Shown: positions 879 to 61,371 of the stretch, in pieces
Layout of the letters: the number at the start of each line of letters is the position of its first letter
How positions within the stretch are numbered: the first letter of the stretch is position 1
Notes under the pieces: generated by a model
Databases searched by the model: none
Told to the model about the DNA's origin: nothing
What the model saw: only the letters and a program-made list of their open reading frames with translations
Assembly (NCBI GenBank): GCA_964016885.1
Contig: OZ024749.1
Span: 9,672,001 to 9,736,000 of the forward strand
Reading direction: 5' to 3'
Origin: Eledone cirrhosa
Taxonomy: Eukaryota
Length of the DNA: 64,000 nucleotides
Program-made: the position numbers and the translations under genes

Positions 879-1318
879 TATTGTTATACTTTGGGAGGGT
901 CATGTTGCCAATAAGAAACACACGCACCAGTTGCTTTCACTTCAATTTATTATAATAAATTTATAATAAATTTATAAATTTCTGGTTGGTTGGTTGGTTG
1001 CCTCTCCTTTGTTCAGGACAGAACAAAGGAGAGGCACAGAAACAAAGAAAGGAATCCCCAGTCACTGAAGAGGTCACAGAGTGTGTGTGACGAAAGAACT
1101 ATGACAATATATAAACAACTATCTGGTTGTGGAACCAACCAACCAACCAGAAATTTATAAATTTATAAATTTATTATAAATTTATTATAATAAATTGAAG
1201 TGAAAGCAACTGGTGCGTGTGTTTCTTATTGGCAACATTACCCTCCCAAAGTATAACAATATCGGTTTCAACACACGATTTCAGATAAAGAATCTTGCTA
1301 AACAAATTCAGAAACGAA

Positions 1319-1323
<5 letters not shown>
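879..1323. mobile_element. Fold-back pseudo-LTR cassette of the same Penelope family
   Basis: 879-990 is the reverse complement of ~1133-1262; inner hairpin 1000-1035; the right arm matches 9-222 inverted and has a ~60 bp extra tail; (TA)n on both sides. Confidence 0.8.
1061..1105 (+). ncRNA. Type I hammerhead ribozyme motif (family 1)
   Basis: gtca-CTGAAGA-g-GTCACA..TGTGAC-GAAA-gaac-TA-tgac. Confidence 0.7.
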
Positions 1324-1382
<59 letters not shown>

Positions 1383-1629
1383 TATATTATCTTCCTTTTA
1401 CTTTTTTATTATGTTTTAACCATTGTTTGTATTTTTTTATTTTGTGTGCCATCAATTGTATCTGCATCTTGTGAGATCTGCTTGTGCCCTAGCATTTAGC
1501 TTAACAACCCCAGCATGTACTCTCTCCTTATTCGCCATCTCCGATCTCCCTATCTTTACCCTCTATTGTATTCCGATTGTTCGTGTGACTAAGCTTGGTA
1601 GAGCTTATACTCAGCACTGTGTTTATTAA

Positions 1630-1670
1630 GCTCTGATGATTCCCAACGGTATGGATGAAACATTGTAAGC
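1630..1670 (+). ncRNA. Type I hammerhead ribozyme motif (family 2)
   Basis: gct-CTGATGA-tTCC caacggtat GGA t-GAAA-CATTG-TA-agc; predicted GUA cleavage site; ~45 bp before a (TA)n run. Confidence 0.7.
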
Positions 1671-1713
1671 AAATAAAAACTGTTTGAGTATGTAAGCGTT
1701 CTTTGGTTTCTTT

Positions 1714-1760
<47 letters not shown>

Positions 1761-1807
1761 ATGTGTGTGTGTGTGTGTGTGTATGTCTCTGTTTGTGGGT
1801 ATATACA

Positions 1808-1844
<37 letters not shown>

Positions 1845-2201
1845 TTATATGTCTTTGTGTGCATATATGTGTGTGTGTCTGTACACCATTATACCATTCT
1901 TTTGCCTCTTTATCTCTCCTACTTTTTGCCTGCTACTCTGTTCAGTATGTATACTCCTCCTTCCACCTATATATTAATTCTCTCTTTCCTTTCTCATTTA
2001 CTCTCTCTCTCACTCTTTCTTTCTATATATATATATGATATATATATATATATATATATATTTGTTATAGCGCTGGTTCATCTGAATCATTGAGCACTTG
2101 CCACACATCTCGGAGGTTGTTTTTCGTTATTTTGTGGGCCGAAATGCGATTCTCGATAATTTATGTTTGTTTTTATATATATATATACACACACACATAA
2201 T

Positions 2202-2544
2202 GGAGTCGCATGTCTTAGTGGTTAGAGCATTGGCCTTGCAATCGAAAGGTTGTGAGTTCAATTCTCAGACCGGGGGATGTGTTGTTTCCTTGAGCAAGAC
2301 ACTTTATTTCACATTGCTCCAGTTTACTCAGCTGTAGAAATGAGATGATAGGACTGGGGTCCATATCATTCCACTGTAAAGTAGTCGTGGAAGTACTACG
2401 GTAAAAAAGCACCCAGCATTTACTGTAAATGAGGTTGGTGTTAGGAAGGGCATCCAGCTGTAGAAATCAAGCCAGAATCAGTTCCCGTCTCACCCTTGAA
2501 AGCAGGGAAAGCGGACGTAAAATGATGATGATGATGATGATGAT
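2202..2544 (+). mobile_element. tRNA-derived SINE, family A
   Basis: A/B box-like head (tagtggttagagc...gagttcaattc), ccttgagcaagacact core, RTE-like tail ending in (ATG)n; near-identical copies elsewhere in the window. Confidence 0.9.
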
Positions 2545-2552
2545 ATATATAT

Positions 2553-2601
<49 letters not shown>

Positions 2602-5783: not shown

Positions 5784-5798
5784 GTATATATATAGATA

Positions 5799-9857: not shown

Positions 9858-11095
9858 CCAAAAGGATGAAAGGCAAAGTTGAGATTGGTGGGATTTGAAC
9901 TCAGAACGTAAAAACGGAAGAAGTATCGCTAAGCATTTCACCAGCTCACCGCCTTATTTTCACCAGTTATAATGCAATATGAAATATTGGTTCTACCACG
10001 GGCCATAGAAAAGTAGTTCGCGGGCCACATGTTTGAGCCCCCTGTTGGAGATAGATAGATAGACGTGTACCAAACACACACACTCACATCTCTGACTCTC
10101 TCTGTCTCTCCCTCTTTCTCTCTTCATTTATATATATATATTTTTTGCATCTTTGGTATTTTGACTGTATAGTTTGAATTGTTGCAACAGCTAACAGTGA
10201 AATATAAAATATAAAAAAAAAGCTTTTCAGACTGAGATCAAGTCTTTCAGAACATTCATGTCTATTTTTCAAAAATATATAATTTGAAATAGTTTGCTTT
10301 TGTTTTGGACTGAAAATTGTTTGTATTTAATTTGTACGAGTATTTTTTAAAGATTCTAACATAACTTAATTTGAAATGGATATTCGTGGATATTTTAAAT
10401 GTAGTCGTGAAAATGATACTGTTCTTTCTCAGGAAAGCTCCAAAATACAGAAAAATACAGAAAAATCAAGCCAAGATCTTGTGTCGCTCTCAACTTCCAT
10501 CATTTCTTATGAACCTTCTGAACGTAATGAAAGCTTCCCTATACCAATTGATCATGAAAATGATAATGTTCTTTCTCAGGAAAGTTAAAAAACAAATGCT
10601 AAAACAAAATCCAGCCAAGATACTGTATCTCCCTCAACTTCCACCGTAATTGAACCTGCTGAACGTTATGAAAGCTGCCTTATACCGATGGAACCTTATC
10701 ATCCAGATGTGACTGTGATACCTCTTCAAAAATTGCCAAATAAGACACTGAAGTTTCAATCAAAATGGTTCCAGGCTTATAATTGGCTGCATTATGATGC
10801 TAGATTGAAAGGAGTTTGTCACACGTGTTCATATGCACATCAAGATAAACTAATAAACTTGGCTAAATGCTCTGATAATGCTTTCATTTTAAGAGGCTTC
10901 AAAACTGGAAGGGGGCTCAAACATGTGGCCCGCGAACTTCTTTTCTATGGCCCGTGGTAGAACCAATATTTCATATTGCATTATAACTGGTGAAAATAAG
11001 GCGGTGAGCTGGTGAAATGCTTAGCGATACTTCTTCCGTTTTTACGTTCTGAGTTCAAATCCCACCAATCTCAACTTTGCCTTTCATCCTTTTGG
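9858..11095. mobile_element. 186-bp near-perfect inverted repeats enclosing a hAT/TTF zinc-finger relic
   Basis: 9858-10043 is the reverse complement of 10910-11095 (one mismatch seen). Each arm is part of a family B SINE plus a hAT-like end (agggggctcaaacatgtggcccgcg). Confidence 0.85.
10376..10908 (+). pseudogene. hAT transposase/ZMYM1-like N-terminal fragment (TTF-type zinc finger)
   Basis: MDIRGYFK start and KFQSKWFQAYNWLHYDARLKGVCHTC...AFILRGFK; interrupted by stops, an internal duplication and truncation. Confidence 0.7.
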
Positions 11096-11985: not shown

Positions 11986-12074
11986 TGTGTGTGTGTATAT
12001 ATGGATATGTATATATATATGTATATATATAAATGTATAATATAAGATCAAAAGATGGTTAAAGGAGTTCAATA

Positions 12075-12145
12075 TATTTTATTATGCGCATTTCAAAAAC
12101 AAACATCATCAAACAATAATATTTGTGTTTTCATCAGATAAAACA
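12075..12145 (-). ncRNA. Type I hammerhead motif (family 4, diverged copy)
   Basis: tgttttat-CTGATGA-stem II-GAAA-TGCGCA-TA-ataaaata; flanks 12045-12180 are homologous to 33695-33840. Confidence 0.75.
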
Positions 12146-12498
12146 GGAGAACATGATATGAAGGCTAAAAAAACACTTGTTGATAGTGCAGTTTTAAATC
12201 AACAAATGTATATATATATATGTATGTGTTTGTATATATGTATGCATGTATGTATATGTGTATGCATGTATGAATATATATATGTGTGTGTTTGTATGTG
12301 TATAAAATAGGGAGACACAAAGCAGGTTTTATTTACAAACGGCTAGCAAATTTAAAAATTAGGTTGTAACATGTGCTTATGCCATATTTGACTAAATAGA
12401 ATTAGTCTGTTAGTTGTGATTTTATATATGGAATTTTATATATATTTTTTGTAACAGTTTCTGAAGATCTGATCGAGCTAGCATCGTATTTAATATTG

Positions 12499-12878: not shown

Positions 12879-13092
12879 GCACTGCTTCTAGTGTTCAGCA
12901 ATGTTTAGACAACTTTATCAGAGAAACAATTGTTAGACTGTAAATAAATCCCCTTTTTTGTGCTGTTGACCATTTTATTCTCCACATTTTTTAAATTATA
13001 TATATATAACTAAGGAATTGTGGTAAGGAACCAGATGGACCATAACGCACCAGAGTACTCAATACTTAGGGTAGTAGAGTGGGTAATAGGAA

Positions 13093-13237
13093 AAGGTATG
13101 ACCCCGACGGCAGAGCTCAAACCGTTTCGACGGCTATTTCTGGGCTAAATTAGAATTTTTAGCCTGGCTAAAAATTCTAATTTAGTCCAGAAATAGCCGT
13201 CGAAACGGCTTGAGCTCTGCCGTCGGGGTCATACCTT
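13093..13237. repeat. 145-bp near-perfect palindrome (fold-back cassette)
   Basis: 72-bp arms, 1-nt centre at 13165, 2 mismatches seen; each arm carries GAAACGG(T/C)TT; left tail has GAGTACTC; TA runs on both sides. Confidence 0.9.
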
Positions 13238-13369
13238 GTCCTATATGTATATATATATTTGTGTGTGTATAACAAGTGTGTTGAACATTCTCTTGATATA
13301 TAAAGATATTTTTTTTAAACCATTATCTTCCACAACTTTATATAATGTTTTAAACCATTTCAATCTCTA

Positions 13370-13994: not shown

Positions 13995-16900
13995 TATAGT
14001 AAGACTGTGTAGGGTACAGTAAGACTGTGTAGGGTACAGTAAGACTGTGTAGGGTACAGTAACACTGTGTAGGGTATAGTAACACTGTGTAGGGTACAGT
14101 AACACTGTGTAGAGTATAGTAACACTGCGTAGAGTATAGTAACACTGTGTAGGGTGTAGTAAAATTGTGTAGGGTACAGTAACACTGTGTAGGGTACAGT
14201 AAGACTGTGTAGGGTATAATAAGACTGTGTAGGGTACAGTAAGACTGTGTAGGGTATAGTAAGACTGTGTAGGGTATAGTAAGACTGTGTAGGCTACAGT
14301 AAGACTCTGTAGGGTATAGTAACACTGTGTAGGGTACAGTAAGACTGTGTAGGGTATAGTAACACTGTGTAGGGTATAGTAACACTGTGTAGGGTATAGT
14401 AACACTGTGTAGGGTATAGTAACACTGTGTAGTGTATAGTAACACTGTGTGGGGTACAGTAAGACTGTGTTGGGTACAGTAAGACTGTGTAGGGTATAGT
14501 AACACGGTGTAGGGTACAGTAAGACAGTGTAGGGTACAGTAAGACTGTGTAGGGTATAGTAAGACTGTGTAGGGTACAGTAAGACTGTGTAGGGTATAGT
14601 AAGACTGTGTAGGGTACAGAAAGACTGTGTAGGGTACAGTAAGACTGTGTGGGGTACAGTAAGACTTGTAGGGTATAGTAAGACTGTGTAGGGTACAGTA
14701 AGACTGTGCAGGGTATAGTCAGACTGTATAGGGTATAGTAACACTATGTAGGGTAGAGTAACACTGTGTAGGGTACAGTAAGACTGTGTAGGGTGCAGTA
14801 AGACTGTGTAGGGTATAGTAACACTGTGTAGGGTACAGTAACACTGTGTAGGGTACAGTAAGACTGTGTAGGGTACAGTAAGACTGTGTAGGGTATAGTA
14901 ACACTGTGTAGGGTATAGTAACACTGTGTAGGGTATAGTAACACTGTGTAGGGTATAGTAACACTGTGTAGAGTATAGTAAGACTGTGTAGGGTACAGTA
15001 ACACTGTGTAGGGTATAGTAACACTTTGTAGGGTATAGTAACATTGTGTGGGGTATAGTAAGACTGTGTAGGGTATAGTAAAACTGTGTAGAGTATAGTA
15101 AGACTGTGTAGGGTACAGTAAGTCTGTGTAGGGTATAGTAAGACTGTGTAGGGTACAGTAACACTGTGTAGGGAATAGTAACACTGTGTAGGGTATAGTA
15201 ACACTGTGTAGGGTATAGTAACACTGTGTGGGGTATAGTAAGACTGTGTAGGGTACAGTAACACTGTGTAGGGTATAGTAACACTGTGTAGGGTACAGTA
15301 ACACTGCGTAGAGTATAATAACACTATGTAGGGTGTAGTAAAATTGTGTAGGGTACAGTAACACTGTGTAGGGTACAGTAAGATTGTATAGGGTATAGTA
15401 AGACTGTGTATGGTATAGTAACACTATGATAGTAAGACTGTGTAGGGTGTAGTAAGACTGTGTAGGGTACAGTAAGACTGTGTAGGGTATAGTAACACTG
15501 TATAGGGTATAGTAACACTGTGTAGGGTACAGTAAGACTGTGTAGGGTATAGTAACACTGTGTAGGGTACAGTAAGACTGTGTAGGGTACAGTAAGACTG
15601 TGTAGGGTATAGTAAGACTGTGTAGGGTATAGTAAGACTGTGTAGGGTACAGTAAGACTGTGTAGGGTATAGTAACACTGTGTAGGGTACAGTAAGACTG
15701 TGTAGGGTATAGTAACACTGTGTAGAGTACAGTAATACTGTGTAGGGTACAGTAACACTGTGTAGGGTATAGTAAGACTATGTAGGGTATAGTAACACTG
15801 TGTAGGGTATAGTAACACAGTGTAGAGTATAGTAAGACTGTGTAGGGTATAGTAAGACTGTGTAGGGTATAGTAAGAATGAGTAGGGTACAGTAAGACTG
15901 TGTAGGGTACAGTAAGACTGTGTAGGGTACAGTAAGAATGTGTAGGGTATAGTAACACTGTGTAGGGTATAGTAACACTGTGTAGGATACAGTAAGACTG
16001 TGTCGGGTACAGTAAAACTGTGTAGGGTACAGTAAGACTGTGTAGGGTACAGTAACACTGTGTAGGGTATAATAAGACTGTGTAGGGTACAGTAAGACTG
16101 TGTAGGGTATAGTAAGACTGTGTAGGGTATAGTAACACTGTGATAGTAAGACTGTGTAGGGTGTAGTAAGACTGTGTAGGGTACAGTTAGACTGTGTAGG
16201 GTATAGTAAGACTGTGTAGGGTATAGTAAGACTGTGTAGGCTACAGTAAGACTGTGTAGGGTATAGTAACACTGTGTAGGGTACAGTAAGACAGTGTAGG
16301 GTATAGTAACACTGTGTAGGGTATAGTAACACTGTGTAGGGTATAGTAACACTGTGTAGGGTATAGTAACACTGTGTAGGGTATAGTAACACTGTGTAGT
16401 GTATAGTAACACTGTGTGGGGTACAGTAAGACTGTGTTGGGTACAGTAAGACTGTATAGGGTATAGTAACACTGTGTAGGGTACAGTAAAACTGTGTAGG
16501 GTATAGTAACACGGTGTAGGGTACAGTAAGACTGTGTAGGGTACAGTAAGACAGTGTAGGGTACAGTAAGACTGTGTAGGGTATAGTAAGACTGTGTAGG
16601 GTACAGTAAGACTGTGTAGGGTATAGTAAGACTGTGTAGGGTACAGAAAGACTGTGTAGGGTACAGTAAGACTGTGTGGGGTACAGTAAGACTTGTAGGG
16701 TATAGTAAGACTGTGTAGGGTACAGTAAGACTGTGCAGGGTATAGTCAGACTGTATAGGGTATAGTAACACTATGTAGGGTAGAGTAACACTGTGTAGGG
16801 TACAGTAAGACTGTGTAGGGTGCAGTAAGACTGTGTAGGGTATAGTAACACTGTGTAGGGTACAGTAACACTGTGTAGGGTACAGTAACACTGTGTAGGG

Positions 16901-19900
16901 TACAGTAAGACTGTGTAGGGTATAGTAACACTGTGTAGGGTATAGTAACACTGTGTAGGGTATAGTAACACTGTGTAGAGTATAGTAAGACTGTGTAGGG
17001 TACAGTAACACTGTGTAGGGTATAGTAACACTTTGTAGGGTATAGTAACATTGTGTGGGGTATAGTAAGACTGTGTAGGGTATAGTAAAACTGTGTAGAG
17101 TAGAGTAAGACTGTGTAGGGTACAGTAAGTCTGTGTAGGGTATAGTAAGACTGTGTAGGGTACAGTAACACTGTGTAGGGAATAGTAACACTGTGTAGGG
17201 TATAGTAACACTGTGTAGGGTATAGTAACACTGTGTGGGGTATAGTAAGACTGTGTAGGGTACAGTAACACTGTGTAGGGTATAGTAACACTGTGTAGGG
17301 TACAGTAACACTGCGTAGAGTATAATAACACTGTGTAGGGTGTAGTAAAATTGTGTAGGGTACAGTAACACTGTGTAGGGTACAGTAAGATTGTATAGGG
17401 TATAGTAAGACTGTGTATGGTATAGTAACACTATGATAGTAAGACTGTGTAGGGTGTAATAAGACTGTGTAGGGTACAGTAAGACTGTGTAGGGTATAGT
17501 AACACTGTATAGGGTATAGTAACACTGTGTAGGGTACAGTAAGACTGTGTAGGGTATAGTAACACTGTGTAGGGTACAGTAAGACTGTGTAGGGTACAGT
17601 AAGACTGTGTAGGGTATAGTAAGACTGTGTAGGGTATAGTAAGACTGTGTAGGGTACAGTAAGACTGTGTAGGGTATAGTAACACTGTGTAGGGTACAGT
17701 AAGACTGTGTAGGGTACAGTAAGACTGTGTAGGGTATAGTAACACTGTGTAGAGTACAGTAACACTGTGTAGGGTACAGTAACACTGTGTAGGGTATAGT
17801 AAGACTATGTAGGGTATAGTAACACTGTGTGGGGTATAGTAACACAGTGTAGAGTATAGTAAGACTGTGTAGGGTATAGTAAGACTGTGTAGGGTATAGT
17901 AAGAATGAGTAGGGTACAGTAAGACTGTGTAGGGTACAGTAAGACTGTGTAGGGTATAGTAACACTGTGTAGGGTATAGTAAGACTGTGTAGGGTACAGT
18001 AAGACTGTGTAGGGTGCAGTAAGACTGTGTAGGGTATAGTAACACTGTGTAGGGTACAGTAAAACTGTGTAGGGTACAGTAAGACTGTGTAGGGTACAGT
18101 AAGACTGTGTAGGGTATAGTAACACTGTGTAGGGTATAGTAACACTGTGTAGGATACAGTAAGACTGTGTCGGGTACAGTAAAACTGTGTAGGGTACAGT
18201 AAGACTGTGTAGGGTACAGTAAGACTGTGTAGGGTATAGTAACACTGTGTAGGGTATAGTAACACTGTGTAGGGTATAGTAACACTGTGTAGGGTATAGT
18301 AACACTGTGTAGGAGTATAGTAACACTGTGTAGTGTATAGTAACACTGTGTGGGGTACAGTAAGTCTGTGTAGGGTACAGGAAGACTGTAGAGGGTATAG
18401 TAACACTGTGTAGGGTACAGTAAGACTGTGTAGGGTATAGTAACACTGTGTAGGGTACAGTAAGACTGTGTAGGGTACAGTAAGACTGTGTAGGGTACAG
18501 TAAGACTGTGTAGGGTATAGTAAGACTGTGTAGGGTATAGTAACACTGTGTAGGGTATAGTAATACTGTGTAGGGTACAGTAAGACTGTGTGGGGTATAG
18601 TAACACTGTGTAGGGTATAGTAACACTGTGTAGGGTATAGTAACACTGTGTAGGGTATAGTAACACTGTGTAGGGTATAGTAACACTGTGTAGGGTACAG
18701 TAACACTATGTAGGGTACAGTAACACTGTGTAGGGTACAGTAACACTGTGTAGGGTACAGTAAGACTGTGTAGGGTATAGTAACACTCTGTAGTGTAATG
18801 TAACACTGTGTAGGGTACAGTAAGACTGTGTAGGGTATAGTAAGACTGTGTAGGGTATAATAACACTGTGTAGGGTACAGTAAGATTGTGTAGGGTATAG
18901 TAAGACTGTGTATGGTATAGTAACACTATGATAGTAAGACTGTGTAGGGTGTAGTAAGACTGTGTAGGGTACAGTAAGACTGTGTAGGGTACAGTAACAC
19001 TGTGTAGGGTACAGTAAGACTGTGTAGGGTACAGTATCACTGTGTAGGGTACAGTAAGACTGTGTAGGGTACAGTAACACTGTGTAGGGTACAGTAGCAC
19101 TGTGTAGGGTATAGTAACACTGTGTAGGGTATAGTAACACTGTGTAGGGTATAGTAATACTGTGTAGGGTATAGTAACACTGTGTAGGGTACAGTAAGAC
19201 TGTGTAGGGTATAGTAACACTGTGTAGGGTATAGTAAGACTCTGTAGGGTACCGTAACACTGTGTAGGGTATAGTAACACTCTGTAGGGTATAGTAACAC
19301 TGTGTAGGGTACAGTAACACTGTGTAGGGTACAGTAAGACTGTGTAGGGTATAGTAACACTGTGTAGGGTACAGTAACACTGTGTAGGGTACAGTAAGAC
19401 TGTGTAGGGTACAGTAAGACTGTGTAGGGTATAGTAACACTGTGTAGGGTATAGTAACACTGTGTAGGGTATAGTAAGACTGTGTAGGGTACAGTAAGAC
19501 TGTGTAGGGTATAGTAACACTGTGTAGGGTATAGTAACACTGTGTAGGGTACAGTAACACTGTGTAGGGTATAGTAACACTGTGTAGGGTATAGTAACAC
19601 TGTGTAGGGTATAGTAACACTGTGTGGGGTATAGTAAGACTGTGTAGGGTATAGTAATACTGTGTAGAGTATAGTAAGAATGTGTAGGATACAGTCAGAC
19701 TATGTAGTGTACAGTAACACTGTGTAGGGTATAGTAAGACTGTGTAGGGTATAGTAACACTGTGTAGGGTATAGTAACACAGTGTAGGGTATAGTAAGAC
19801 TGTGTAGGGTACAGTAACACTGTGTAGGGTACAGTAAGACTGTGTAGGGTACAGTAAGACTGTGTAGGGTATAGTAACACTGTGTAGGGTATAGTAACAC

Positions 19901-22900
19901 TGTGTAGGGTATATTAACACTGTGTAGAGTATAGTAACACTGTGTAGGTTATAGTAACACTGTGTAGTGTATAGTAACACTGTGTGGGGTACAGTAAGTC
20001 TGTGTACGGTACAGTAAGACTGTATAGGGTATAGTAACACTGTGTAGGGTATAGTAATACTCTACACAGTGTGAATGTGTAGGGTATAGTAACACTGTGT
20101 AGGGTATAGTAAGACTTGTAGGGTATAGTAACACTGTGTAGGGTATAGTAACACTGTGTAGGGTACAGTAAGACTGTGTAGGGTATAGTAACACTGTGTA
20201 GGGTATAGTAACACTGTGTAGGGTATAGTAACACTGTGTAGAGTATAGTAACACTGTGTAGGGTACAGTAACACTGTGTAGGGTACAGTAACACTGTGTA
20301 GGGTACAGTAAGACTGTGTAGGGTATAGTAAGAATGAGTAGGGTACAGTAAGACTGTGTAGGGTATAGTAACACTGTGTAGGGTATAGTAAGACTGTGTA
20401 GGGTACAGTAAGACTGTGTAGGGTACAGTAAGACTGTGTAGGGTATAGTAACACTGTGTAGGGTATAGTAACACTGTGTAGGGTATAGTAACACTGTGTA
20501 GGGTACAGTAACACTGTGTAGGGTATAGTAAGACTGTGTAGGGTATAGTAACACTGTGTAGGGTATAGTAACACAGTGTAGAGTATAGTAAGACTGTGTA
20601 GGGTATAGTAAGACTGTGTAGGGTATAGTAAGAATGAGTAGGGTACAATAAGATTGTGTAGGGTATAGTAACACTGTGTAGGGTATAGTAAGACTGTGTA
20701 GGGTACAGTAAGACTGTGTAGGGTACAGTAAGACTGTGTAGGGTATAGTAACACTGTGTAGGGTATATTAACACACTGTAGAGTATAGTAACACTGTGTA
20801 GGTTATAGTAACACTGTGTAGTGTATAGTAACACTGTGTGGGGTACAGTAAGTCTGTGTACGGTACAGTAAGACTGTATAGGGTATAGTAACACTGTAGG
20901 GTATAGTAATACTGTGTAGGGTACAGTAAGACTGTGTAGGGTATAGTAACACTGTGTAGGGTATAGTAAGACTTGTAGGGTATAGTAACACTGTGTAGGG
21001 TATAGTAATACTGTGTAGGGTACAGTAAGACTGTGTAGGGTATAGTAACACTGTGTAGGGTATAGTAACACTGTGTAGGGTATAGTAACACTGTGTAGGG
21101 TACAGTAACACTGTGTAGGGTACAGTAACACTGTGTAGGGTACAGTAAGACTGTGTAGGGTATAGTAACACTGTGTAGGTTATAGTTAGACTGTGTAGGG
21201 TACAGTAAGACTGTGTAGGGTACAGTAACACTGTGTAGGGTACAGTAAGACTGTGTAGGGTATAGTAACACTGTGTAGGGTACAGAACACTGTGTAGGGT
21301 ACAGTAAGATTGTGTAGGGTATAGTAAGACTGTGTAGCGTACAGTAAGACTGTGTAGGGTATAGTAACACTGTGTAGGGTACAGTAACACTGTGTAGGGT
21401 ACAGTAAGACTGTGTAGGGTATAGTAACACTGTGTAGGGTACAGTAACACTGGGTAGGGTACAGTAAGACTGTGTAGGGTATAGTAAGACTGTGTAGGGT
21501 ATAGTAACACTGTGTAGGGTACAGTAACACTGTGTAGGGTACAGTAAGACTGTGTAGGCTACAGTAACACTGTGTAGGGTACAGTAACACTGTGTAGGGT
21601 ACAGTAATACTGTGTAGGGTATAGTAACACTGTGTAGGGTATAGTAACATTGTGTAGAGTATAGTAAGACTGTGTAGGGTACAGTAACACTGTGTAGGGT
21701 ACAGTAAGACTGTGTAGGGTATAGTAACACTGTGTAGGGTACAGTAACACTGTGTAGGGTACAGTAAAACTGTGTAGGGTATAGTAACACTGTGTAGGGT
21801 ACAGTAAGACTGTGTAGGGTATAGTAACACTGTGTAGGGTATAGTAACACTGTGTAGGGTATAGTAACACTGTGTAGGGTATAGTAACACTGTGTAGGGT
21901 ACAGTAAGACTGTGTAGGGTATAGTAACACTGTGTAGGGTATAGTAAGACTCTGTAGGGTACCGTAACACTGTGTAGGGTATAGTAACACTCTGTAGGGT
22001 ATAGTAACACTGTGTAGGGTATAGTAACACTGTGTAGGGTATAGTAACACTGTGTAGGGTATAGTAACACTGTGTAGGGTACAGTAAGACTGTGTAGGGT
22101 ATAGTAAGACTGTGTAGGGTATAGTAAGACTGTGTAGGGTATAGTAACACTGTGTAGGGTATAGTAAGACTGTGTAGGGTGCAGTAAGACTGTGTAGGGT
22201 ACAGTAAGACTGTGTAGGGTATAGTAACACTGTGTAGGGTACAGTAACACTGTGTAGGGTAAAGTAAGACTGTGTAGGTTACAGTAACTCTGTGTAGGGT
22301 ACAGTAATACTGTGTAGGGTACAGTAACACTGTGTAGGGTACAGTAACACTGTGTAGGGTATAGTAACACTGTGTGGGGTACAGTAAGTCTGTGTACGGT
22401 ACAGTAAGACTGTATAGGGTATAGTAACACTGTAGGGTATAGTAATACTGTGTAGGGTACAGTAAGACTGTGTAGGGTATAGTAACACTGTGTAGGGTAT
22501 AGTAAGACTTGTAGGGTATAGTAACACTGTGTAGGGTATAGTAATACTGTGTAGGGTACAGTAAGACTGTGTAGGGTATAGTAACACTGTGTAGGGTATA
22601 GTAACACTGTGTAGGGTATAGTAACACTGTGTAGGGTACAGTAACACTGTGTAGGGTACAGTAACACTGTGTAGGGTACAGTAAGACTGTGTAGGGTATA
22701 GTAACACTGTGTAGGTTATAGTTAGACTGTGTAGGGTACAGTAAGACTGTGTAGGGTACAGTAACACTGTGTAGGGTATAGTAAGACTGTGTAGGGTATA
22801 GTAACACTGTGTAGGGTACAGAACACTGTGTAGGGTACAGTAAGATTGTGTAGGGTATAGTAAGACTGTGTAGCGTACAGTAAGACTGTGTAGGGTATAG

Positions 22901-33801: not shown

Positions 33802-33894
33802 GGGAGACATGATATGAAGCTTAAAAAAGACATTTGTGAGCAAGATAGTGTTTAGACATCAAGTGTCTTTTTTAAGCTTCATATCATGTCTCCC

Positions 33895-33965
33895 TATTTT
33901 ATCTGATGAGAACGCAAATATCGTCCCTAGATGATATTTGTTTTTGAAATGCACATAATAAAATA
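33895..33965 (+). ncRNA. Type I hammerhead ribozyme (family 4)
   Basis: Mirror copy with GAAA-TGCACA-TA. Confidence 0.8.
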
Positions 33966-34307
33966 CATGGAACTTTTTTAACCATCTTTTAATTTCTTCT
34001 TATATATACTCCAGTCCAATAAACTGTTGAGTGCTACTTATCCGATATTTGCATTGCTTTATTGTGCTACAATAAAACTCACCTCCTACATTTGCAAATT
34101 TTTGCAATAACTACACATGCTGAATTCACTGGCCAAAATAGGGGTTTCCTCCCCTTGGAATATCACGTGTGCTTTCACAACCTGAGAGATTCCAGCGAAA
34201 AATGAACAAAAACCCGTTGAGAAAGTGATGCCTTGTTCGATCATTATACCAAAAGCTTATTTTTATTTTTATAAGCAGACGGTATTATTGATTTAGGTGT
34301 TGGATTT

Positions 34308-34498
34308 AGGGTGGTGGATTGGCAGTATCGGTAGAGGGTCGGACGCCATGCTTTCCAGCATAGTTACGTCCCTTTACAATCTGAGTTCAAATCCCACCGA
34401 GGTTGACTTTGCCTTTCATCTTTACGGGGTCGATAAAATAAAGTACCAGTAATGTACTGGGTAATTGCTGGCCTTGTGCCTAAAGTAGAAACAATTAT
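34308..34498 (+). mobile_element. SINE family B
   Basis: Matches 42222-42410 and 50185-50372. Confidence 0.85.
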
Positions 34499-35089
34499 TG
34501 ATTTAGGTGTTGCAGAAACCCAAATTTCGGAGTATTACATCTTCCCCGAGTATCCGGGTAACTATTTCAATCATATCTCATTCTGTTTGACCCGTTTAGC
34601 TTGTTCGCTTTTTTGGTCATGGTGGCTATGGCTTCTTAACCATCGTCTCAGCGTGTATGACCATTTTAACTTATGTTTATAGCTCTGCTATCCTCTTCAT
34701 ATGCATGGAGCGCTTGTCTGCACATTATTGAAGTTGCGTTTCGCTAATTTCTACCCGCCGAAATGCGATTCTCGCTAAATTATATCTATCTATATATATA
34801 TATATATATATATATAAAGAGAGAGAGAGATGAAGGAACGACAAAACAGGTACAAAAAGTCTTATTAGTTTCGCGCTTTATATGGAAAAAGAGGAGAGAA
34901 AGTTTTATATATATTATATTATAATATATATACTAGCAGAAAAACCTCTCTACGGGCGGTTTTCTGCTAGCATATATAGTGTGCATATTGGTATTATACG
35001 CAAATATATATGCATATACATATATATATATGTAGATATATGTAAATTGAAAAGTAAATTGACAATATCTTCTTCTTCACCCACTTATT

Positions 35090-38176: not shown

Positions 38177-38484
38177 AAGCTGAAGCATATAGACAATATG
38201 CCTCCACACCCTCCCACTGCAAAGTGGTCGTGGAGGTGCCACTGCAAAAAAAGCACCCAGTCCACACTGTAAAGTGGACGTGTAGGCGCCACGGAAAAAA
38301 GCACCCAGCACTCACTGTAAATGAGGTTGGTGTTAGGAAGGGCATCCAGCTGTAGAAATCAAGCCAAATCAGTTCCTGTATGAGCAAGGCATGGTCAGCC
38401 GACCAGTCACTGCCCACAACAGGACAACCCGTCTAACCCATGCTAGCATGGAAGAACGGACATAAAACAGTGATGATGATGATG
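38177..38484 (+). mobile_element. 3' UTR fragment of RTE LINE family B
   Basis: Colinear with 63210-63516. Confidence 0.8.
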
Positions 38485-38573
38485 AGGAGATATATATATA
38501 TATATATATATACAGTATATATATATATATATAGATATGTGTGTTTGTGTGTGTGTCAATACATAAACACATA

Positions 38574-38913
38574 TCATCATCATCATCATCATTTTACGTC
38601 CACTTTTCCCTGCTTGCAAGGGTGGGACGGGACTGATTCTGGCTTGATTTCTACAGCTGGATGCCCTTCCTAACACCAACCTCATTTACAGTGAGTGCTG
38701 GGTGCTTTTTTTTCGTGGCAACTCCACGACCACTTTGCAGTGGAATGATAGGGACCCCAGCCCCTATCATCTCATTTCTACAGCTGAGTAAACTGGAGCA
38801 ATGTGAAATAAAGTGTCTTGCTCAAGGAAACAACACATTACTCGGTCTGAGAATTGAACTCACAACCTTTCGATTGCAAGGCCAATGCTCTAATCACTGA
38901 GCCATGTGCCTCC
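38574..38913 (-). mobile_element. tRNA-derived SINE, family A
   Basis: Reverse complement of 30841-31177. Confidence 0.9.
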
Positions 38914-48400: not shown

Positions 48401-48539
48401 GATAAGAATCATTCCTTTTTCCTCAGATATTTGCAGTTGTTTTATGTATTTATTTCTCTATTTTGTTTAATTTATATTTTATATTGTTTTATTGTTAACT
48501 TTTGTTTTGTTCTGCAGAAATTATTTCTCTAAAAGCCTT

Positions 48540-48600
<61 letters not shown>

Positions 48601-48604
<4 letters not shown>

Positions 48605-48805
48605 GTAGAACACTGGAAGGTAATATCTGTAGTGGTAGAGCACTCAGTCCATGGGACGAGTTAGGTAGAAGTGGTTACACAACAGTTAGTTCACCATACC
48701 GAGAACAATTGTTTCACCTTAGCAGATCCTCATTACGAGCTGAGGATCCGCTAAGGTGGAACAATTGTTCTCGGTATGGTGGACTAACTGTTGTGTAACC
48801 ACTTC

Positions 48806-48807
<2 letters not shown>
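48601..48807. mobile_element. Fold-back cassette with hammerhead (family 6)
   Basis: Arms 48666-48732 and 48741-48807. At 48736-48773(+): cgag-CTGAGGA-tcc gctaa ggt-GGAA-CAATTG-TT-ctcg; the other arm retains GAAA. Tail 48601-48665; (TA)n both sides. Confidence 0.85.
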
Positions 48808-48845
<38 letters not shown>

Positions 48846-48887
48846 TAGATAAATATACACGGGTGTGTATGATTGTGTATAGAAGAT

Positions 48888-49232
48888 TATATTAATAAGA
48901 GGAATTCCAACTTTGTCTGATTTACTCGTTTTATTTACAATCCTTTAAAATTTATAATGGTATTATAATGAAATAGTATGATAGAATATTAAATTTTAAG
49001 TGTTAATTGAACAAGTACTTTCATGCTTTTGCAATCTGTTGAAAATTGCAAACTTGACTGTCACCACATATTATGAACCTGAAGATTGCGAAAGCATGAA
49101 AGTACTTGTTCAATTAACACTTAGAATTTAATATTCTATCATACTATTTCATTATAATACCATTATAAATTTTAAAGGATTGTAAATAAAACGAGTAAAT
49201 CAGACAAAGTTGGAATTCCTCTTATTAATATA
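48888..49232. mobile_element. Fold-back cassette with hammerhead (family 7)
   Basis: 150-bp arms 48888-49037 and 49083-49232, 45-nt spacer. Confidence 0.9.
49074..49112 (+). ncRNA. Minimal type I hammerhead ribozyme (family 7)
   Basis: tgaac-CTGAAGA-tTGC gaaa GCAt-GAAA-GTAC-TT-gttca; palindromic stem III AAGTACTT. Confidence 0.85.
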
Positions 49233-49446
49233 TATATATATATATATATACATATATATATCATCATCATCATCATCATTTTACGTCCATTTTTGCCTGC
49301 TTGCAAGGGTATGTATGTATATATATATATGTATATATATATATATGTATGTACGTATGTGTGTGTGTGGTAGGTGGCTGAGAGAAAGGAGTACTCAATA
49401 CCAAAGCAGAGTTTTAATATTCATTTTATTAAGGCTAAATAGTGAG

Positions 49447-49496
49447 TCTTGTTTCTCTAGAATTTCACCTGTTCATCACATGGTCATCAGACAAGA
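49447..49496 (-). ncRNA. Degenerate hammerhead (family 8)
   Basis: tcttgt-CTGATGA-cc...ggt-GAAA-ttctagag-AA-acaaga; stem I and core present, but the NUH site lacks its U. Confidence 0.5.
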
Positions 49497-49662
49497 ACTC
49501 TTAATAAAATGAATATATATATATATATATAAACAAAGGGATATTTAATTTGTTGGTAATTCAACAAATATATTTATAACAGATTCGAAGCACTTGACAA
49601 GTTTTCTAGAGTATAATATCAATGATATTAATGAATGGAAACTATATTCATAAAACCATATT

Positions 49663-49723
49663 TATTCTATTATATATATTTCAAGGGTACCAAAACTTTG
49701 GTACGCACTCATCAGATAAAATA
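49663..49723 (-). ncRNA. Type I hammerhead ribozyme (family 9)
   Basis: Mirror of 49841-49901. Confidence 0.82.
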
Positions 49724-49840
49724 CAAAGTTTGTTTTATAAATATTGACATATCCAAGAATGAGACCTTAACTATCCAGGTGAAACTTGAACCGTTAAGGT
49801 CTCATTCCTGGATATGTCAATATTTATAAAACAAACTTTG

Positions 49841-49901
49841 TATTTTATCTGATGAGAGCGTACCAAAGTTTTGGTACCCTTGAAATATATATAATAGAAT
49901 A
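49841..49901 (+). ncRNA. Type I hammerhead ribozyme (family 9)
   Basis: tattttat-CTGATGA-gagc GTACCAA agtt TTGGTAC cctt-GAAA-TATATA-TA-atagaata. Confidence 0.85.
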
Positions 49902-49942
49902 AATATGGTTTTATAAATATAGTTTCCATTTATTAATATCAT

Positions 49943-49975
<33 letters not shown>

Positions 49976-50184
49976 CCCAAACACAGAAAATATCTGCAAC
50001 AGTCAATCACAATAAATAATAGCTTAGAAAAACAAGTAAAATATGCCTGGTGAGTTTAAATACCACTGAGGCACACTTTTCCTTTCATCCTTATAGGATC
50101 AATAAAATAAAGTACCAGTAATGCAACTTTCTCATCCCACCAAAATTATTGGCCTTGTGCCAAAATCAGAAGCCATTATTTAAA

Positions 50185-50515: not shown

Positions 50516-51265
50516 ATCATCATCATCATTTTACATCCGCTCTTCCCTGCTTGCAAGGGTGGGACGGGTCTTATTCAGCACAGCATCTCTCCACTCGTCA
50601 CGGTCCTTCGTCATCTCCACCGTGAGCTTCAGCGATCTGAGGTCTGTTCTCACCACCTCCGCCCATGTTTTTCGTGGTCTACCTCTACCACGTCTTCCTT
50701 CAACTGGCATTTCCTGGCACTTCTTCACCCATCGGTCATCCTCCATGCGCATCACATGTCCATACCACCTCAGTCTCCTCTCCCGTACACTACATTCTAT
50801 CCCTCTCAAACACAGTTTCTCTCTCAACACATTCATGCTGGGTCGTTCACGCACATTGACATTGCACATCCAACGGAGCATGCTTGCCTCATTTCTCTCC
50901 AGCTGTCGCATATCCTCTACAGTTGCTGCCCATGTCTCACTACCATGCAGCATCGCGCTCCTCACACAGGCATCATATAACCGGCCTTTCGTACGCAGGG
51001 AGAAACAGCTCCCTAAACTTCTTCCAACCCATCCTTATTCTAGATACTATGGCCTCGGAACACCCCCCTCCCATGCTAATCTGATCTCCTAGGTACCGGA
51101 AGCTATCCACCACTTCTATAGCACCCGCCTGCATTTGAAAATGTGTCTATCAATGCGACTTCTACTGTCTAATTTCCCTGTACATCTACTGCATACGTAT
51201 TTCTCCCTACCTGTTAGTTTGCCTGCTCTACTGCATACATATTTCTCCCTACCTGTTAGTTTGCC
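50516..51265 (-). mobile_element. 5'-truncated RTE LINE family A
   Basis: DSFRYLGD...GWKKFREL...MLHGSETW...RRLRWYGHVMRM...GRGRPRKTW and an (ATG)n tail. Confidence 0.93.
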
Positions 51266-51484
51266 TGCTATATACATATATAGTTTGCTTGCTATATATA
51301 TATATACATATATATGTGTATGTGTCCATCATTCCATTGTTTTTTTCCATTGTCTTATTGTCTTTGTCCTATGCAACACCAATTTTGAACATTTATATAT
51401 ATATATATATACACATATATATATATATACACATATGAGAATGTTCTAGTTTACTTGAAATATTGTGTAATGTGTAAAAAAAAA

Positions 51485-51861
51485 TAGTGTTTTGTCTGAA
51501 AGCTGCCACAATGTAAATTAAACAGTAAATGTCAAAAATCTAATAACAATGATGTTGGGGTGTTGCAGTTCTGTATAGATCCTTATATTGGGGGATAAAG
51601 CCCCTTCAAAAGATTAATAGAAAAAACTACTTCAGAACATTTTTCGTCTCTTTTGAAATTTCAAAAAATGACAACTTAAGAGTAACAAAAAAGGCTGTAC
51701 TGCCTGAAATATTTTCTTCAATCAATTTTTGAAAAGGGGATTTTATCACAAAATATAAGGACCTGTAGAGAACTGTAAGGTAACACTCTAACATCATTGT
51801 TATTAAATTTTTAACATTTACCATCCAATTCACATTATGGTAGCTTTCATACTAAACACTA
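51485..51861. mobile_element. Old long-TIR MITE
   Basis: Imperfect ~140-bp inverted arms: tagtgttttgtctgaaagctgcca...tggtagctttcatactaaacacta. Confidence 0.75.
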
Positions 51862-51879
51862 TATATATATATATATATA

Positions 51880-58087: not shown

Positions 58088-58180
58088 CTTTCTAAAAGTT
58101 GACACAGTAAATCTTTTGAGATTGGGATTTTATGAGCTAACATTATCTTCCTGACGTTAGAAGCTGGCAAGTGACCAATT
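58088..58180 (-). CDS. EFHC2: EFHC2-like penultimate coding exon
   Basis: tttctatctag| 93 nt |gtaagtg; encodes IGHLPASNVRKIMLAHKIPISKDLLCQLLE(R), compared with recalled EFHC2 VLPTKDIKRLCKSSRLPLSDDLLESLLSR. Confidence 0.78.
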
Positions 58181-58221
58181 CTAGATAGAAATAAAATTGA
58201 AAGATTAGAAATCTGATGAAT

Positions 58222-60033
58222 GTGTGGTTGTGGGTTGAGTGGTTGTGAGGCTGTGTGGTAGAGTGGTTGTGGGGGTGTGTGGTAGTGTGGTAGAGTGGTT
58301 GTGGGGTTGGGTGGTTGGGGGGTAGTGTGGTTGTGAGGCTGTGTGGTAGTGGTTGGGGGGGTAGAGTGGGGGGTAGTTGGGGTGTTGGGGGGTTGTGGAG
58401 TTGTGGGGTTGAGTGGTTGTGTGGTTGTGTGGTAGTGTCGTTGTGGAGTTGGGGGATTGTGGCTGTGTGGTAGTGTGGTTGTGGGGTTGTGCGGTAGTGT
58501 GGTTGTGGGGTTGTGTGGTGGGGGGATTGTGTGGTTGTGGGGTTGAGTGGTTGTGGGGGTTGAGTGGTTGTGCTGTTGTATGGTAGTGTGGTAGTGTGGT
58601 TGTGGGGTTGAGTGGTTGTGGGGTTGTGTGGTTGAGTGGTTGTGTGGTTATGGGATTGTGTGGTTGTGGGGTTGTGGGGTTGTGGGGTTGTGTTGTTGTG
58701 TGGTTGTGGGGTTGTGTGGTTGTGTGGTTGTGGGGTTGTGGGGTTGTGGGGTTGTGGGATTGTGTGGTTATGGGATTGTGTGGTTGTGTGGTTGTGGTTG
58801 TGGGGTTGTGGGGTTGTGTTGTTGTGTGGTTGTGGGGTTGTGTGGTTGTGTGGTTGTGGTTGTGGGGTTGTGGGGTTGTGTTGTTGTGTGGTTGTGGGAT
58901 TGTGTGGTTGTGTGGTTGTGGTTGTGGGGTTGTGGGGTTGTGTTGTTGTGTGGTTGTGGGGTTGTGTGGTTGTGTGGTTGTGGTTGTGGGGTTGTGTTGT
59001 GTGGTTGTGGGATTGTGTGGTTGTGTGGTTGTGGGGTTGTGGGGTTGTGTTGTTGTGTGGTTGTGGGGTTGTGTGGTTGTGTGGTTGTGGTTGTGGGGTT
59101 GTGGGGTTGTGGGGTTGTGGGATTGTGTGGTTATGGGATTGTGTGGTTGTGTGGTTGTGGTTGTGGGGTTGTGGGGTTGTGTTGTTGTGTGGTTGTGGGG
59201 TTGTGTGGTTGTGGTTGTGGGGTTGTGGGGTTGTGGGGTTGTGGGGTTGTGTTGTTGTGTGGTTGTGGGATTGTGTGGTTGTGTGGTTGTGGTTGTGGGG
59301 TTGTGGGGTTGTGGGGTTGTGGGATTGTGTGGTTGTGGGGTTGAGTGGTAGTGTGGTTGTGGGGTTGTGTCGTTGTGGGGTTGTGTTGTTGTGTGGTTGT
59401 GGGGTTGTGTGGTTGTGGGGTTGTGGGGTTGTGTTGTTGTGGGGTTGTGGGGTTGTGGGGTTGTGGGATTGTGTGGTTATGGGATTGTGTGGTTGTGTGG
59501 TTGGGGTTGTGGGGTTGTGTTGTTGTGTGGTTGTGGGGTTGTGTGGTTGTGTGGTTGTGGTTGTGGGGTTGTGGGGTTGTGGGGTTGTGTGGTTGTGGGA
59601 TTGTGTGGTTGTGTGGTTGTGGTTGTGGGGTTGTGGGGTTGTGGGATTGTGTGGTTGTGGGGTTGAGTGGTAGTGTGGTTGTGGGGTTGTGTCGTTGTGG
59701 GGTTGTGTTGTTGTGTGGTTGTGGGGTTGTGTGGTTGTGGGGTTGAGTGATAGTGTGGTTGTGTCGTTGTGGTTGTGTGGTTGCAGGGTTGTGGGGTTGA
59801 GTGATGTGGGGTTGTGTGATTGTGTGGTTGGGGGATTGTGGTTGTGTGGCTGAGGGGTTGTGGAGTTGTGTGGCTGAGGGGTTGTGGAGTTGTGTGGCTG
59901 AGGGGTTGTGGGGTAGTGTGGTTGTGGGGTTGTGTGGTTGTGTTGTTATGGGGTTGTGGGGTTGTGTGGTGGTGTAGTGGTGTGGTTGAATGGTTGTGAG
60001 GTTATGTAGTTGTGGTTGTGGGGTTGTGTGGTT
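58222..60033. repeat. G/T-rich TTGTGGGG/TTGTGTGG satellite (intronic)
   Basis: Direct inspection; many GGGG runs. Confidence 0.97.
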
Positions 60034-60224
60034 AAGAAGTTACATTACAAGCTGGTCCCACACCTGGTCCTACCCTGTATATAACACCCAACTAATGGTG
60101 TAATCCAATGTGATTATGAAATATATGAAAGAAGACCTGATATTGATATGGTTGACAAGGGGAGAAGACTGAGCTGGCTAACTGATGTAATGCTACCACA
60201 GGGTATGTGAGAAGAGACCACCGA

Positions 60225-60650
60225 GGGGTAACTGATATCACACCTCTGGAGGATAACAGGATATGTGAGATAGTTGATATCACACCATCAGGGGGTAACT
60301 GATATCACACCACCAGGGGGTAACTGATATCACACCACCAGGGGGTAACTGATATCACACCACTAGGGGGTAACTGATATCACACTACCAAGGAGTAACT
60401 GATATCACACTACCAAGGGGTAACTGATATCACACCACCAGGGGGCAACTGATACCACACCACCAGGGCGTAACTGATACCACACCACCAGGGGGCAACT
60501 GATATCACATAACACACCACCAGGGGGCAACTGATATCACACATCACACCGCCAGGGGGCAACTGATATCACACATCACACCGCCAGGGGGCAACTGATA
60601 TCACACATAACACTGCTAGGGGGTAATTGATATCACACCACCAGGGGTTA
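60225..60650. repeat. 25-bp minisatellite
   Basis: ggggg(t/c)aactgatatcacaccacca, about 14 copies. Confidence 0.92.
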
Positions 60651-60821
60651 ACAAACTGAGAATTAGTACCTAATATATATAAATCAAACAATACAACACA
60701 ATAAACACACCCCAGCAAGTGATGCCAGCTAAAGAGTCTTATACGGTATTGATATGTCAGCCGGGTGTTGGAGGGACAACATGAAAACCTGCCTAGGACA
60801 TATCACATGTTGAACATAAGA

Positions 60822-60881
60822 TAGCTGCTTGATGAGATCATATCTGTTACGTAACAGATACCACTGAAATATATATAACTA
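60822..60881 (+). ncRNA. Degenerate hammerhead-like motif
   Basis: TTGATGA...tatctgttac gtaacagata...GAAA-TATATA-TA-acta; C3 is lost and stem I is weak. Confidence 0.35.
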
Positions 60882-61090
60882 ATAAAATAAACAATAAAAC
60901 GATGTAACATTCAAGCACACTGACTTCTTTACACACACACACACAGATATATATATATATATAAATCTCTAATGGTAGCTAAGATGCTTCCATGGGCGGT
61001 AGGCCAGTTGAGCACTCTATGCTCCTACGGAGCAGAGTATTATAGAATGGAAAACGAAAAATTAGTGATGCATCGGAACTCAATTTATTG

Positions 61091-61181
61091 TGTGTTACAA
61101 TTGTTTCCCCGGCAAACAGCTTGAGGTGCGATCTGTGTGTGGATCTTACCTGACTCTAGTCTCGCAGGTTCCTCGGACACA
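61091..61181 (-). ncRNA. Hammerhead motif with CCGAGGA core (family 11)
   Basis: Mirror of 61224-61313. Confidence 0.65.
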
Positions 61182-61223
61182 TCTATTGATTTCGGAAAGA
61201 GGATATGATCTGAAATCAATAGA

Positions 61224-61313
61224 TGTGTCCGAGGAACCTGCGAGACTAGAGTCAGGTAGATCCACACACAGATCGCACCTCAAGCTGTTTGCCGGGGAAA
61301 CAATTGTAACACA
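61224..61313 (+). ncRNA. Hammerhead motif with CCGAGGA core and 61-nt stem II (family 11)
   Basis: tgtgt-CCGAGGA-[61 nt]-GAAA-CAATTG-TA-acaca; palindromic stem III, GUA site. Confidence 0.68.
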
Positions 61314-61371
61314 CAATAAATCGAGTTCCGATGCATCACTGATTTTTCGTTTTCCATTCTATATATATATA

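Follow-up and report, generated by a model that had tools for sequence, protein, structure and literature searches.

Insertions of Penelope-like elements (PLEs) that carry an endonuclease (EN+) are known from the literature as an inverted, 5′-truncated copy combined with a one-sided tail (PMC3846280; PMC8557442). The Hydra clade of C-terminal EN+ PLEs (section 11 and Files S1, S2 and S7 of PMC8557442) targets (TA)n repeats and carries hammerhead ribozymes, of type I and close to the 3′ end; for Penelope-13_HM, an inverted 5′-truncated copy is described there. Type I hammerheads with a short palindromic helix III have been described in PLEs, such motifs have low cleavage activity and depend on dimers, and short opposite-strand pairs of ribozymes, 100-700 bp apart and probably truncated PLEs, are present in Schistosoma mansoni (PMC4209133). 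The origin of the inverted repeats and tails of PLEs has been called unresolved (PMC8557442), and what follows initiation has yet to be validated (PMC11167929). Here, we describe seven short fold-back cassettes in a window of 64,000 nucleotides from Eledone cirrhosa (assembly GCA_964016885.1, contig OZ024749.1, positions 9,672,001 to 9,736,000, forward strand). The cassettes are almost certainly PLE insertions, and they were probably formed from two 3′-end copies placed head to head in a TA repeat, with both ends of the cut target priming reverse transcription separately.

The cassettes do not make up a new class of element, and their layout has been described before. With the known EN+ PLE units (Pen2a_Av, PMC3846280; legend to Fig. 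2 of PMC8557442) they share the head-to-head inversion, the tail at one end and the short or palindromic junction, but they have no open reading frame (ORF) between the arms, and most of their tails measure 60-80 nt compared to 30-40 nt in these papers. Furthermore, a short end is paired with a long end in 8/8 cases in the window, whereas the tail is termed optional in the papers. The Hydra clade offers the same (TA)n target, hammerhead position and inverted truncated copy (PMC8557442), and the minimal hammerhead pairs of S. mansoni (PMC4209133) are likewise short, free of ORFs, located on opposite strands and built with a palindromic helix III. PAc, the Poseidon element of Anolis carolinensis (PMC11167929), resembles the cassettes in that both strands of an AT-rich target are cut and extended, two starts of reverse transcription bound the tail and ribozyme cleavage is dispensable; however, it belongs to another clade, starts in an AC-rich stem-loop and shows no strand difference in the start site. 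The retrozymes without long terminal repeats (PMC7229834), with their tandem direct hammerhead repeats and circular RNA, are unlike the cassettes, at which no tandem direct units were found. A literature search for strict end pairing or a tail hairpin in PLEs returned no paper, with subscription journals poorly covered, and for twin priming in PLEs only papers already cited here came up. In twin priming of L1, an inversion arises from priming by two target ends on the same RNA; the pieces do not overlap and the site of the second primer is variable. The cassettes differ from this by their fixed starts and by arms that usually overlap fully, whereas the tail-only inversions described below would match directly. 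The main text of a recent octopus repeat annotation (PMC13282606) contains neither "hairpin" nor "ribozyme".

Fold-back cassettes at TA repeats

An earlier reading of the sequence alone (the original prediction) had claimed fold-backs with near-perfect inverted arms at seven sites, and these were seen at all seven (cassettes 1 to 7, at 879, 12995, 33688, 48601, 48855, 49531 and 60963). The arms are 67-160 bp long and 95.5-99.2% identical, with one to five substitutions and at most one gap block. A scan of the whole window for exact, non-simple inverted 20-mers not more than 400 bp apart gave nine loci, i.e. the seven cassettes, an eighth at 61370-61525 and a pair of short interspersed elements (SINEs) near 38502, compared to none in 30 Markov shuffles. 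Every cassette has a tail at one end only, with an extension of 33-80 nt if the long end of cassette 3 is placed correctly. The short ends lie within or not more than 1 nt from a TA run in 7/7 cassettes. The long ends do so in 5/7, the exceptions being cassette 3, which has no TA run there, and cassette 5, where it is 34 nt away; the prediction of TA runs at both ends was therefore fully right for the short ends only. For comparison, 3.7% of the window is within 5 nt of a TA run. Together with reads from other copies, these ends correspond to the insertion into (TA)n that characterizes the Hydra clade, and the head-to-head, inverted 5′-truncated copy of an EN+ PLE insertion was found as well. 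The flush ends and fixed interior of miniature inverted-repeat transposable elements (MITEs), or of terminal inverted repeats in general, were not found: one side extends by 33-80 nt and the centre varies among copies. The spacers measure 1-45 nt in six cassettes. As predicted, there is no coding capacity, with no ORF in any cassette.

A descriptor for type I hammerheads with a near-palindromic helix III, which was loosened after the cassettes had been seen and then admitted CCGA (cassette 7) and GGAA (cassette 4), gave 13 matches in the window and none in 30 shuffles. Nine matches are in six cassettes, two in unfolded twins and two elsewhere (9046 and 52891). By this descriptor, 6/7 cassettes have the type I hammerhead expected for EN+ PLEs, which lies close to the 3′ end and has a short palindromic helix III. 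All motifs found face outward from the centre. To this extent the claim of outward ribozymes on the arms was borne out, but a full type I core is present on both arms in only three cassettes (3, 6 and 7) and on one side only in three others (1, 4 and 5). Cassette 2 has no descriptor match and only the 3′ half of a hammerhead is visible in its sequence; its fold point appears to fall inside the would-be helix II. With Rfam, no hammerhead reached the gathering level anywhere in the window, and none was reported at E ≤ 10 in 48500-50000 or 1-1800, and its matches to many microRNA family models, all below the gathering cut-off, were rejected as palindrome effects. A sequence-only model (R1) returned only its own six training sites. 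Other unfolded hammerhead-like motifs lie at 1633 (+), 44371 (+), 52891 (+), 9046 (−) and 49490 (−); 1633 and 9046 have TA runs downstream, and the helix II region of 9046 is very long.

In cassette 1 the arms 878-999 and 1133-1262 agree in 121/122 aligned bases plus one gap. The short arm (−) ends in (TA)n 865-881; the spacer and long-ended arm (1015-1262, +) contain the hammerhead core through the cleavage site (1065-1101) and are followed by a 60-nt tail (1263-1322, +) without a Hydra-type hairpin and by (TA)n 1323-1380. Inward, the short arm carries an inverted copy of 1021-1036 and bypasses the ribozyme region 1037-1132; between 999 and 1133 it thus copies 16 nt and skips 96 nt spanning the entire hammerhead, with 1 nt of microhomology. 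Cassette 2 (13086-13164/13166-13244, 76/79 identical) has its long arm with a 77-nt tail at 13009-13164 (−), including a hairpin at 13054-13080 and the hammerhead 3′ half, and its short arm at 13166-13247 (+), which stops at (TA)n 13248. In cassette 3 (33688-33836/33860-34008, 144/149) the short arm (−) has a hammerhead at 33793-33739 and ends in (TA)n; the long arm with its tail of ~80 nt (33860-34088, +) has a hammerhead at 33903-33957 and a hairpin at 34008-34035, and its end, without a TA run, is probably at ~34088. Translations of 34009-34790 revealed no clear ORF. Cassette 4 (48666-48732/48741-48807, 64/67) consists of a long arm with a 64-nt tail (48602-48732, −; hairpin 48639-48661) and of spacer plus short arm (48733-48807, +) with a hammerhead at 48740-48769, in which GAAA reads GGAA and the helix I 5′ strand comes from the spacer. 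Cassette 5 (48888-49037/49083-49232, 148/150) has a longer arm with a 33-nt extension (48855-49037, −) and spacer plus short arm (49038-49232, +) with a hammerhead at 49079-49107 that starts within the spacer. Cassette 6 (49612-49771/49793-49953, 156/160 plus one gap) has a long arm with an 80-nt tail (49532-49771, −; hammerhead 49715-49671, weak hairpin 49589-49612) and a short arm (49793-49953, +; hammerhead 49849-49893) that ends in (TA)n. Cassette 7 (61041-61196/61209-61363, 152/155 plus one gap) comprises a long arm with a 77-nt tail (60964-61196, −; hammerhead 61176-61096, hairpin 61011-61038) and spacer plus short arm (61197-61363, +; hammerhead 61229-61308), which ends in (TA)n. Both hammerheads of cassette 7 have a CCGAGGA core and a helix II region enlarged to 60 nt, and other copies of the family show CTGAGG.

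The list of seven was correct as far as it went, but cassette 2 ends at ~13247 rather than 13237 and two fold-backs had been missed. The eighth (61370-61535) has arms at 61370-61458 and 61464-61525 (57/62 identical plus a 27-nt gap), and its tail opens with a resemblance to the hairpin of the other tails before it is interrupted by a SINE-like repeat. The ninth (51484-51862; 51430-51862 with its extension) is old, with 124/151 identical positions; one arm is flush to (TA)n and the other is 54 nt longer, and no hammerhead was found in it by the descriptor. Cassettes 4-6 sit side by side, as do 7 and 8. Of the arm mismatches in cassettes 4 and 5, four of five are A/G, with G on the sense strand of the short-ended arm, and one is within the ribozyme GAAA. 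This could be RNA editing copied into DNA; the numbers are too small.

Other copies of the families and a coding link

At the family level, the comparison drew on two twins within the window and on five public DNA runs, the latter matched to four of the cassettes (4-7); the runs over 48602-49944 were two contig runs from one sample and two runs of restriction site-associated DNA sequencing, and for cassette 7 the stretch covered was 60964-61359. Loose ends that enter (TA)n pile up at the short ends 48666, 48888, ~49939 and 61353-61358. A fixed long end was found at 60968, where 23 contigs in each contig run, and 488 and 402 reads, enter (TA)n. Short ends fixed in (TA)n were thus seen for three or four families and a fixed long end for one, and they came up repeatedly in short-read DNA from several samples of two studies. 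At 48731, 1,937 and 1,421 reads go on upstream with other sequence and, therefore, the fold point at this position is a truncation. Of 28 joints for cassette 7, 15 are listed, and no two of these have the same pair of positions; further distinct joints were seen for cassettes 4-6. The read depth in run X1, which does not equal copy number, is ~240,000 over the outer arm of cassette 7 and about 100-fold lower, ~1,800, at its centre. Variable centres in combination with fixed ends therefore speak for independent truncated insertions and argue against artefacts and MITEs. The tails of cassettes 4, 6 and 7 are covered at high depth by reads and contigs of other copies; they are family sequence and not the unique tails of 30-100 bp that had been predicted, whereas the one-arm extension itself (33-80 bp) was confirmed.

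Five joints are of a skip type (61011>61195, 61017>61228, 61027>61193, 48655>48735 and 49574>49784), with a tail-only piece head to head with the body, and four of these stop inside the tail hairpin described below. Two joints between opposite strands (61026/61170 and 61029/61104) likewise lie within the hairpin; because the table does not give their direction, they were left out of this count. A joint at 61038/61353 was discarded as a body-to-tail read that is not a fold-back. Where both arms of cassette 7 share variants that differ from the majority of reads, this was not taken to prove a single template, since the runs may be from another species.

Both twins in the window are unfolded and both terminate at the short site. 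The twin of cassette 3 (12033-12182, −; 81%; hammerhead 12137-12083) has the same short end beside (TA)n. The twin of cassette 1 (6-599, −) also has the same short end, at ~6, and a hammerhead at 172-138. Its copy proper spans 6-222, and upstream it reads as the 73-residue end of a GIY-YIG-type ORF (380-599, P0001). Because the unfolded twin reads into this ORF end, cassette 1 is, as judged from its sequence, the 3′ end of a coding PLE with a reverse transcriptase (RT) plus GIY-YIG-type ORF. The search for full-length partners that had been suggested thus gave the end of one ORF, in this family; no ORF link was found in the window for the other six. A further, decayed element without a fold lies between TA runs at 49347-49512 (−); it includes a hammerhead-like core (49490) and, at 49390-49412, the tail hairpin motif.

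With P0001 as query, phmmer gave eight matches at E ≤ 0.001, of which seven share the matching motif and two of these have a clear GIY-YIG pattern by eye; one match led to 16 longer proteins. P0003, a TPR protein among the matches, was dropped as a chance match. P0001 and P0011 are 45% identical over 44 amino acids (pairwise E 1e-10), and tblastn of 23 related proteins against the window returned no further significant ORF piece. The ESM Atlas placed P0001 with unnamed clusters (0.92) and with a cluster of GIY-YIG proteins (0.87), which is a lead only. Within the endonuclease-coding remnant of the twin there is an in-frame 45-bp tandem duplication (497-581).

The tail hairpin and the origin of the two arms

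The tail begins, 0-7 nt beyond the short end, with a bulged hairpin in 5/7 cassettes (2, 3, 4, 6 and 7). It is laid out as ACTC, an inner stem, a bulge of 1-2 nt, RAGT and RCT. The inner stems vary in sequence but pair (TACT/AGTA, CAGT/ACTG, GTCC/GGAC and TGCTCC/GGAGCA), with weak pairing in cassette 6. A structure-aware pattern matched seven times in the window compared to a shuffle mean of 0.23 and a maximum of 2; the matches are the five cassettes, the unfolded element at 49347-49512 and a site at 34682. The latter (34682-34790) lies ~100 nt before a TA run, no hammerhead was found upstream, and it may be a chance match or a decayed element. The seven families had been called unrelated; in line with this, BLAST gave no cross-match among the cassettes, but the hairpin shared by five of them shows that they are not wholly unrelated. 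By eye, the same hairpin is present in four of the six published Hydra consensi (File S7 of PMC8557442), located after the hammerhead or at the 5′ end. It reads GCTC/GAGC, a two-sided change, in Hydra-2_Amil, Hydra-2_Ajap and Hydra-1_Ajap (twice, ~61 nt apart) and is imperfect in Hydra-1_Crog; the words "hairpin" and "stem-loop" do not occur in the main text of that paper. The five hairpin-bearing families are likely to belong to the Hydra clade or to be its passengers. They differ from the Hydra clade in that no Hydra-type ORF, which is marked by RWK, DKT, a CxCX5C linker and no CCHH, is attached to them in the window, and none resembles Hydra-1_Obim by eye.

The two ends of a fold-back are strictly paired. 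All eight inverted loci other than SINEs have one short and one longer end, as does the old fold-back at 51484-51862, and with independently chosen ends the chance of 8/8 is at most 1 in 256. Spacer polarity could be assigned in four cassettes (1, 4, 5 and 7). The spacer belongs to the short-ended arm in cassettes 4 and 5, where it gives the helix I 5′ strand and the start of the core, and in cassette 7, where reads match the + strand from 61195; in cassette 1 it is on the long arm, the same as the tail. Spacer and tail are on opposite arms in 3/4. In vitro, a PLE extends both target strands, starting at both boundaries of the tail and without need for ribozyme cleavage (PMC11167929). The pairing, the spacer polarity, the skip-type joints, the twins ending at the short site and these in vitro starts together favour two primers, which we hold to be a good deal more plausible than a cDNA snapping back on itself.

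According to this model, a GIY-YIG endonuclease would cut both strands of the (TA)n site, as demonstrated in vitro for another PLE (PMC11167929). Synthesis from one target end would begin at the long site, and from the second at the short site, provided that the fixed ends are start sites, and in five families the conserved hairpin just past the short site likely positions the enzyme. Both cDNAs would run toward the 5′ end of the RNA, through the uncleaved hammerhead site where they are long enough, and stop variably; a head-to-head junction between them may then form at about 0-2 nt of microhomology. The resulting ORF-less cassettes are most likely dead stubs.

How else could the arms have arisen? 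A self-primed hairpin of antisense RNA or cDNA with two full arms could be trimmed by the endonuclease at the short site on one arm and at the long site on the other. Self-priming has been proposed from palindromic junctions (PMC3846280) and the tail has been attributed to endonuclease resolution (PMC8557442). The short spacers and the location of the short ends at TA-rich spots that resemble cut sites agree with this, and trimming naturally yields one short and one long end and explains both pairing and spacer polarity. However, the tail-only inversions of the five skip-type joints, each of them thinly documented, would need a duplicated arm, the RT start sites in vitro are the tail boundaries (PMC11167929), and unfolded copies end at the same short site, so that we consider trimming unlikely. 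In a related scheme, a single target-primed cDNA begins at the long end and folds back on itself, and copying proceeds up to a stall immediately in front of the hairpin. Cassette 1, with spacer and tail on the same arm and an innermost loop of 6 nt, would suit this, and a hairpin 0-7 nt after the short end could stall a polymerase. In cassettes 4, 5 and 7 the short arm holds 5′ sequence that is missing from the tailed arm, which excludes that either arm was copied from its partner. Thus, the idea of one cDNA folding back, contained in the original prediction, is contradicted in three of the four assignable cassettes, the twins that terminate at the short site are at odds with it, and it is very unlikely.

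The second idea of the original prediction was a non-autonomous ribozyme hairpin element that spreads as a whole palindrome with a fixed junction. The lack of ORFs in the cassettes, six families without an ORF link here and very many relatives in the public runs would fit, but junctions differ between copies, the depth is lowest at the centre, copies carry different sequence beyond the fold point on its upstream side, as seen in loose ends at 48731 and pieces starting at 61195, and both twins are unfolded. For the four families compared with reads a fixed junction is unsupported, and such elements are highly improbable; non-coding passenger RNAs with variable junctions are possible. The variation of fold-back points, the check that had been proposed, together with fixed outer ends and one family tied to the end of an RT plus GIY-YIG-type ORF, instead supports ultra-truncated PLE insertions. 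Two independent insertions that landed head to head by chance in one TA run can be imagined, since insertions concentrate in TA runs here (cassettes 4-6 are adjacent, as are 7 and 8). Nevertheless, this hardly seems credible: the arms are 95-99% identical to each other compared to 81-85% between cassette and in-window twin, both arms of cassette 1 share a base change and a repeat expansion that are missing from the twin, there is no TA run between the arms and 8/8 pair short with long. Long, TA-flanked inverted arms look like Tc1/mariner-type MITEs, and palindromes are a known library artefact. MITEs or other foldback DNA transposons are contradicted by the longer arm, the variable centre, the ribozyme motifs on the arms and the family that ends a retroelement ORF; an artefact of assembly or library is contradicted by one to five substitutions between the arms, which are hence not read duplicates, and by the recurrence of fixed ends in short-read DNA of several samples and two studies. 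We give next to no credence to either.

Several points weigh against two primers guided by a hairpin. PAc uses both start sites alike on both strands in vitro (PMC11167929), which alone would not yield a strict pairing of short and long ends, and the spacer polarity is compatible with trimming of a full hairpin. A single contig or 1-2 read starts support each skip-type joint, three of which carry the flag "between: not known", and a later deletion inside a palindrome could mimic tail-only joints. The public runs contain 40-43% of the words of cassette 7 and possibly represent another population or species, and among the read and contig pieces listed none spans a complete cassette. The hairpin motif was defined post hoc, after the cassettes had been seen, and its plain sequence pattern is not enriched (6 compared to a mean of 3.1, with 12/100 shuffles reaching 6). 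The hairpin is not present in cassettes 1 and 5 nor, by eye, in the published consensi of Hydra-1_Obim and Hydra-1_Amil, it is unstable in cassette 6 (+2.0 kcal/mol), and in the solo copy it requires an impossible 2-nt loop. The tie to an ORF concerns only 1/7 families and is made through a 73-residue fragment. Pfam assigned 0 families to P0001, the Pfam scores of its full-length relatives fall under the cut-off, and a word-index search found no longer relatives among 30 candidates.

Surroundings and significance

The window consists of animal DNA rich in repeats, among them microsatellites, tRNA-like repeats of the SINE type and a 16-kb satellite (13995-29962) of ~800 copies of a 20-bp unit with 91% matches. 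ORF fragments at 31645-32193, 50531-51034 and 62298-63356 resemble a Tc1/mariner transposase and the ends of RTE-type long interspersed elements. An inverted pair of 186 bp (9858-10043/10910-11095) with 99.5% identity, ~870 bp apart and partly SINE-like, surrounds a broken ORF piece that we take to resemble the start of a hAT-type transposase. This locus (9858-11095) was left out of the cassette set as a different repeat, as was the inverted SINE pair at 38265-38742.

The value of the cassettes is that of a record of mechanism. The pairing of short and long ends, the spacer polarity, the tail-only inversions and the hairpin that occurs across families yield specific predictions for an existing in vitro assay. 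For annotation, such stubs should be classified as PLEs rather than as MITEs or microRNA hairpins. It is tempting, if distinctly speculative, to go further: RNAs of the Hydra type might carry a portable bulged RCTC/GAGY hairpin past the start site, a dimeric RT-endonuclease might prime both ends of the break on one RNA at two fixed sites, and an occupied hairpin might block the first cDNA and leave tail-only inversions. If true, this would be the missing mechanism of PLE integration, and it could write into (TA)n whatever RNA bears the signal, ORF-less passengers included.

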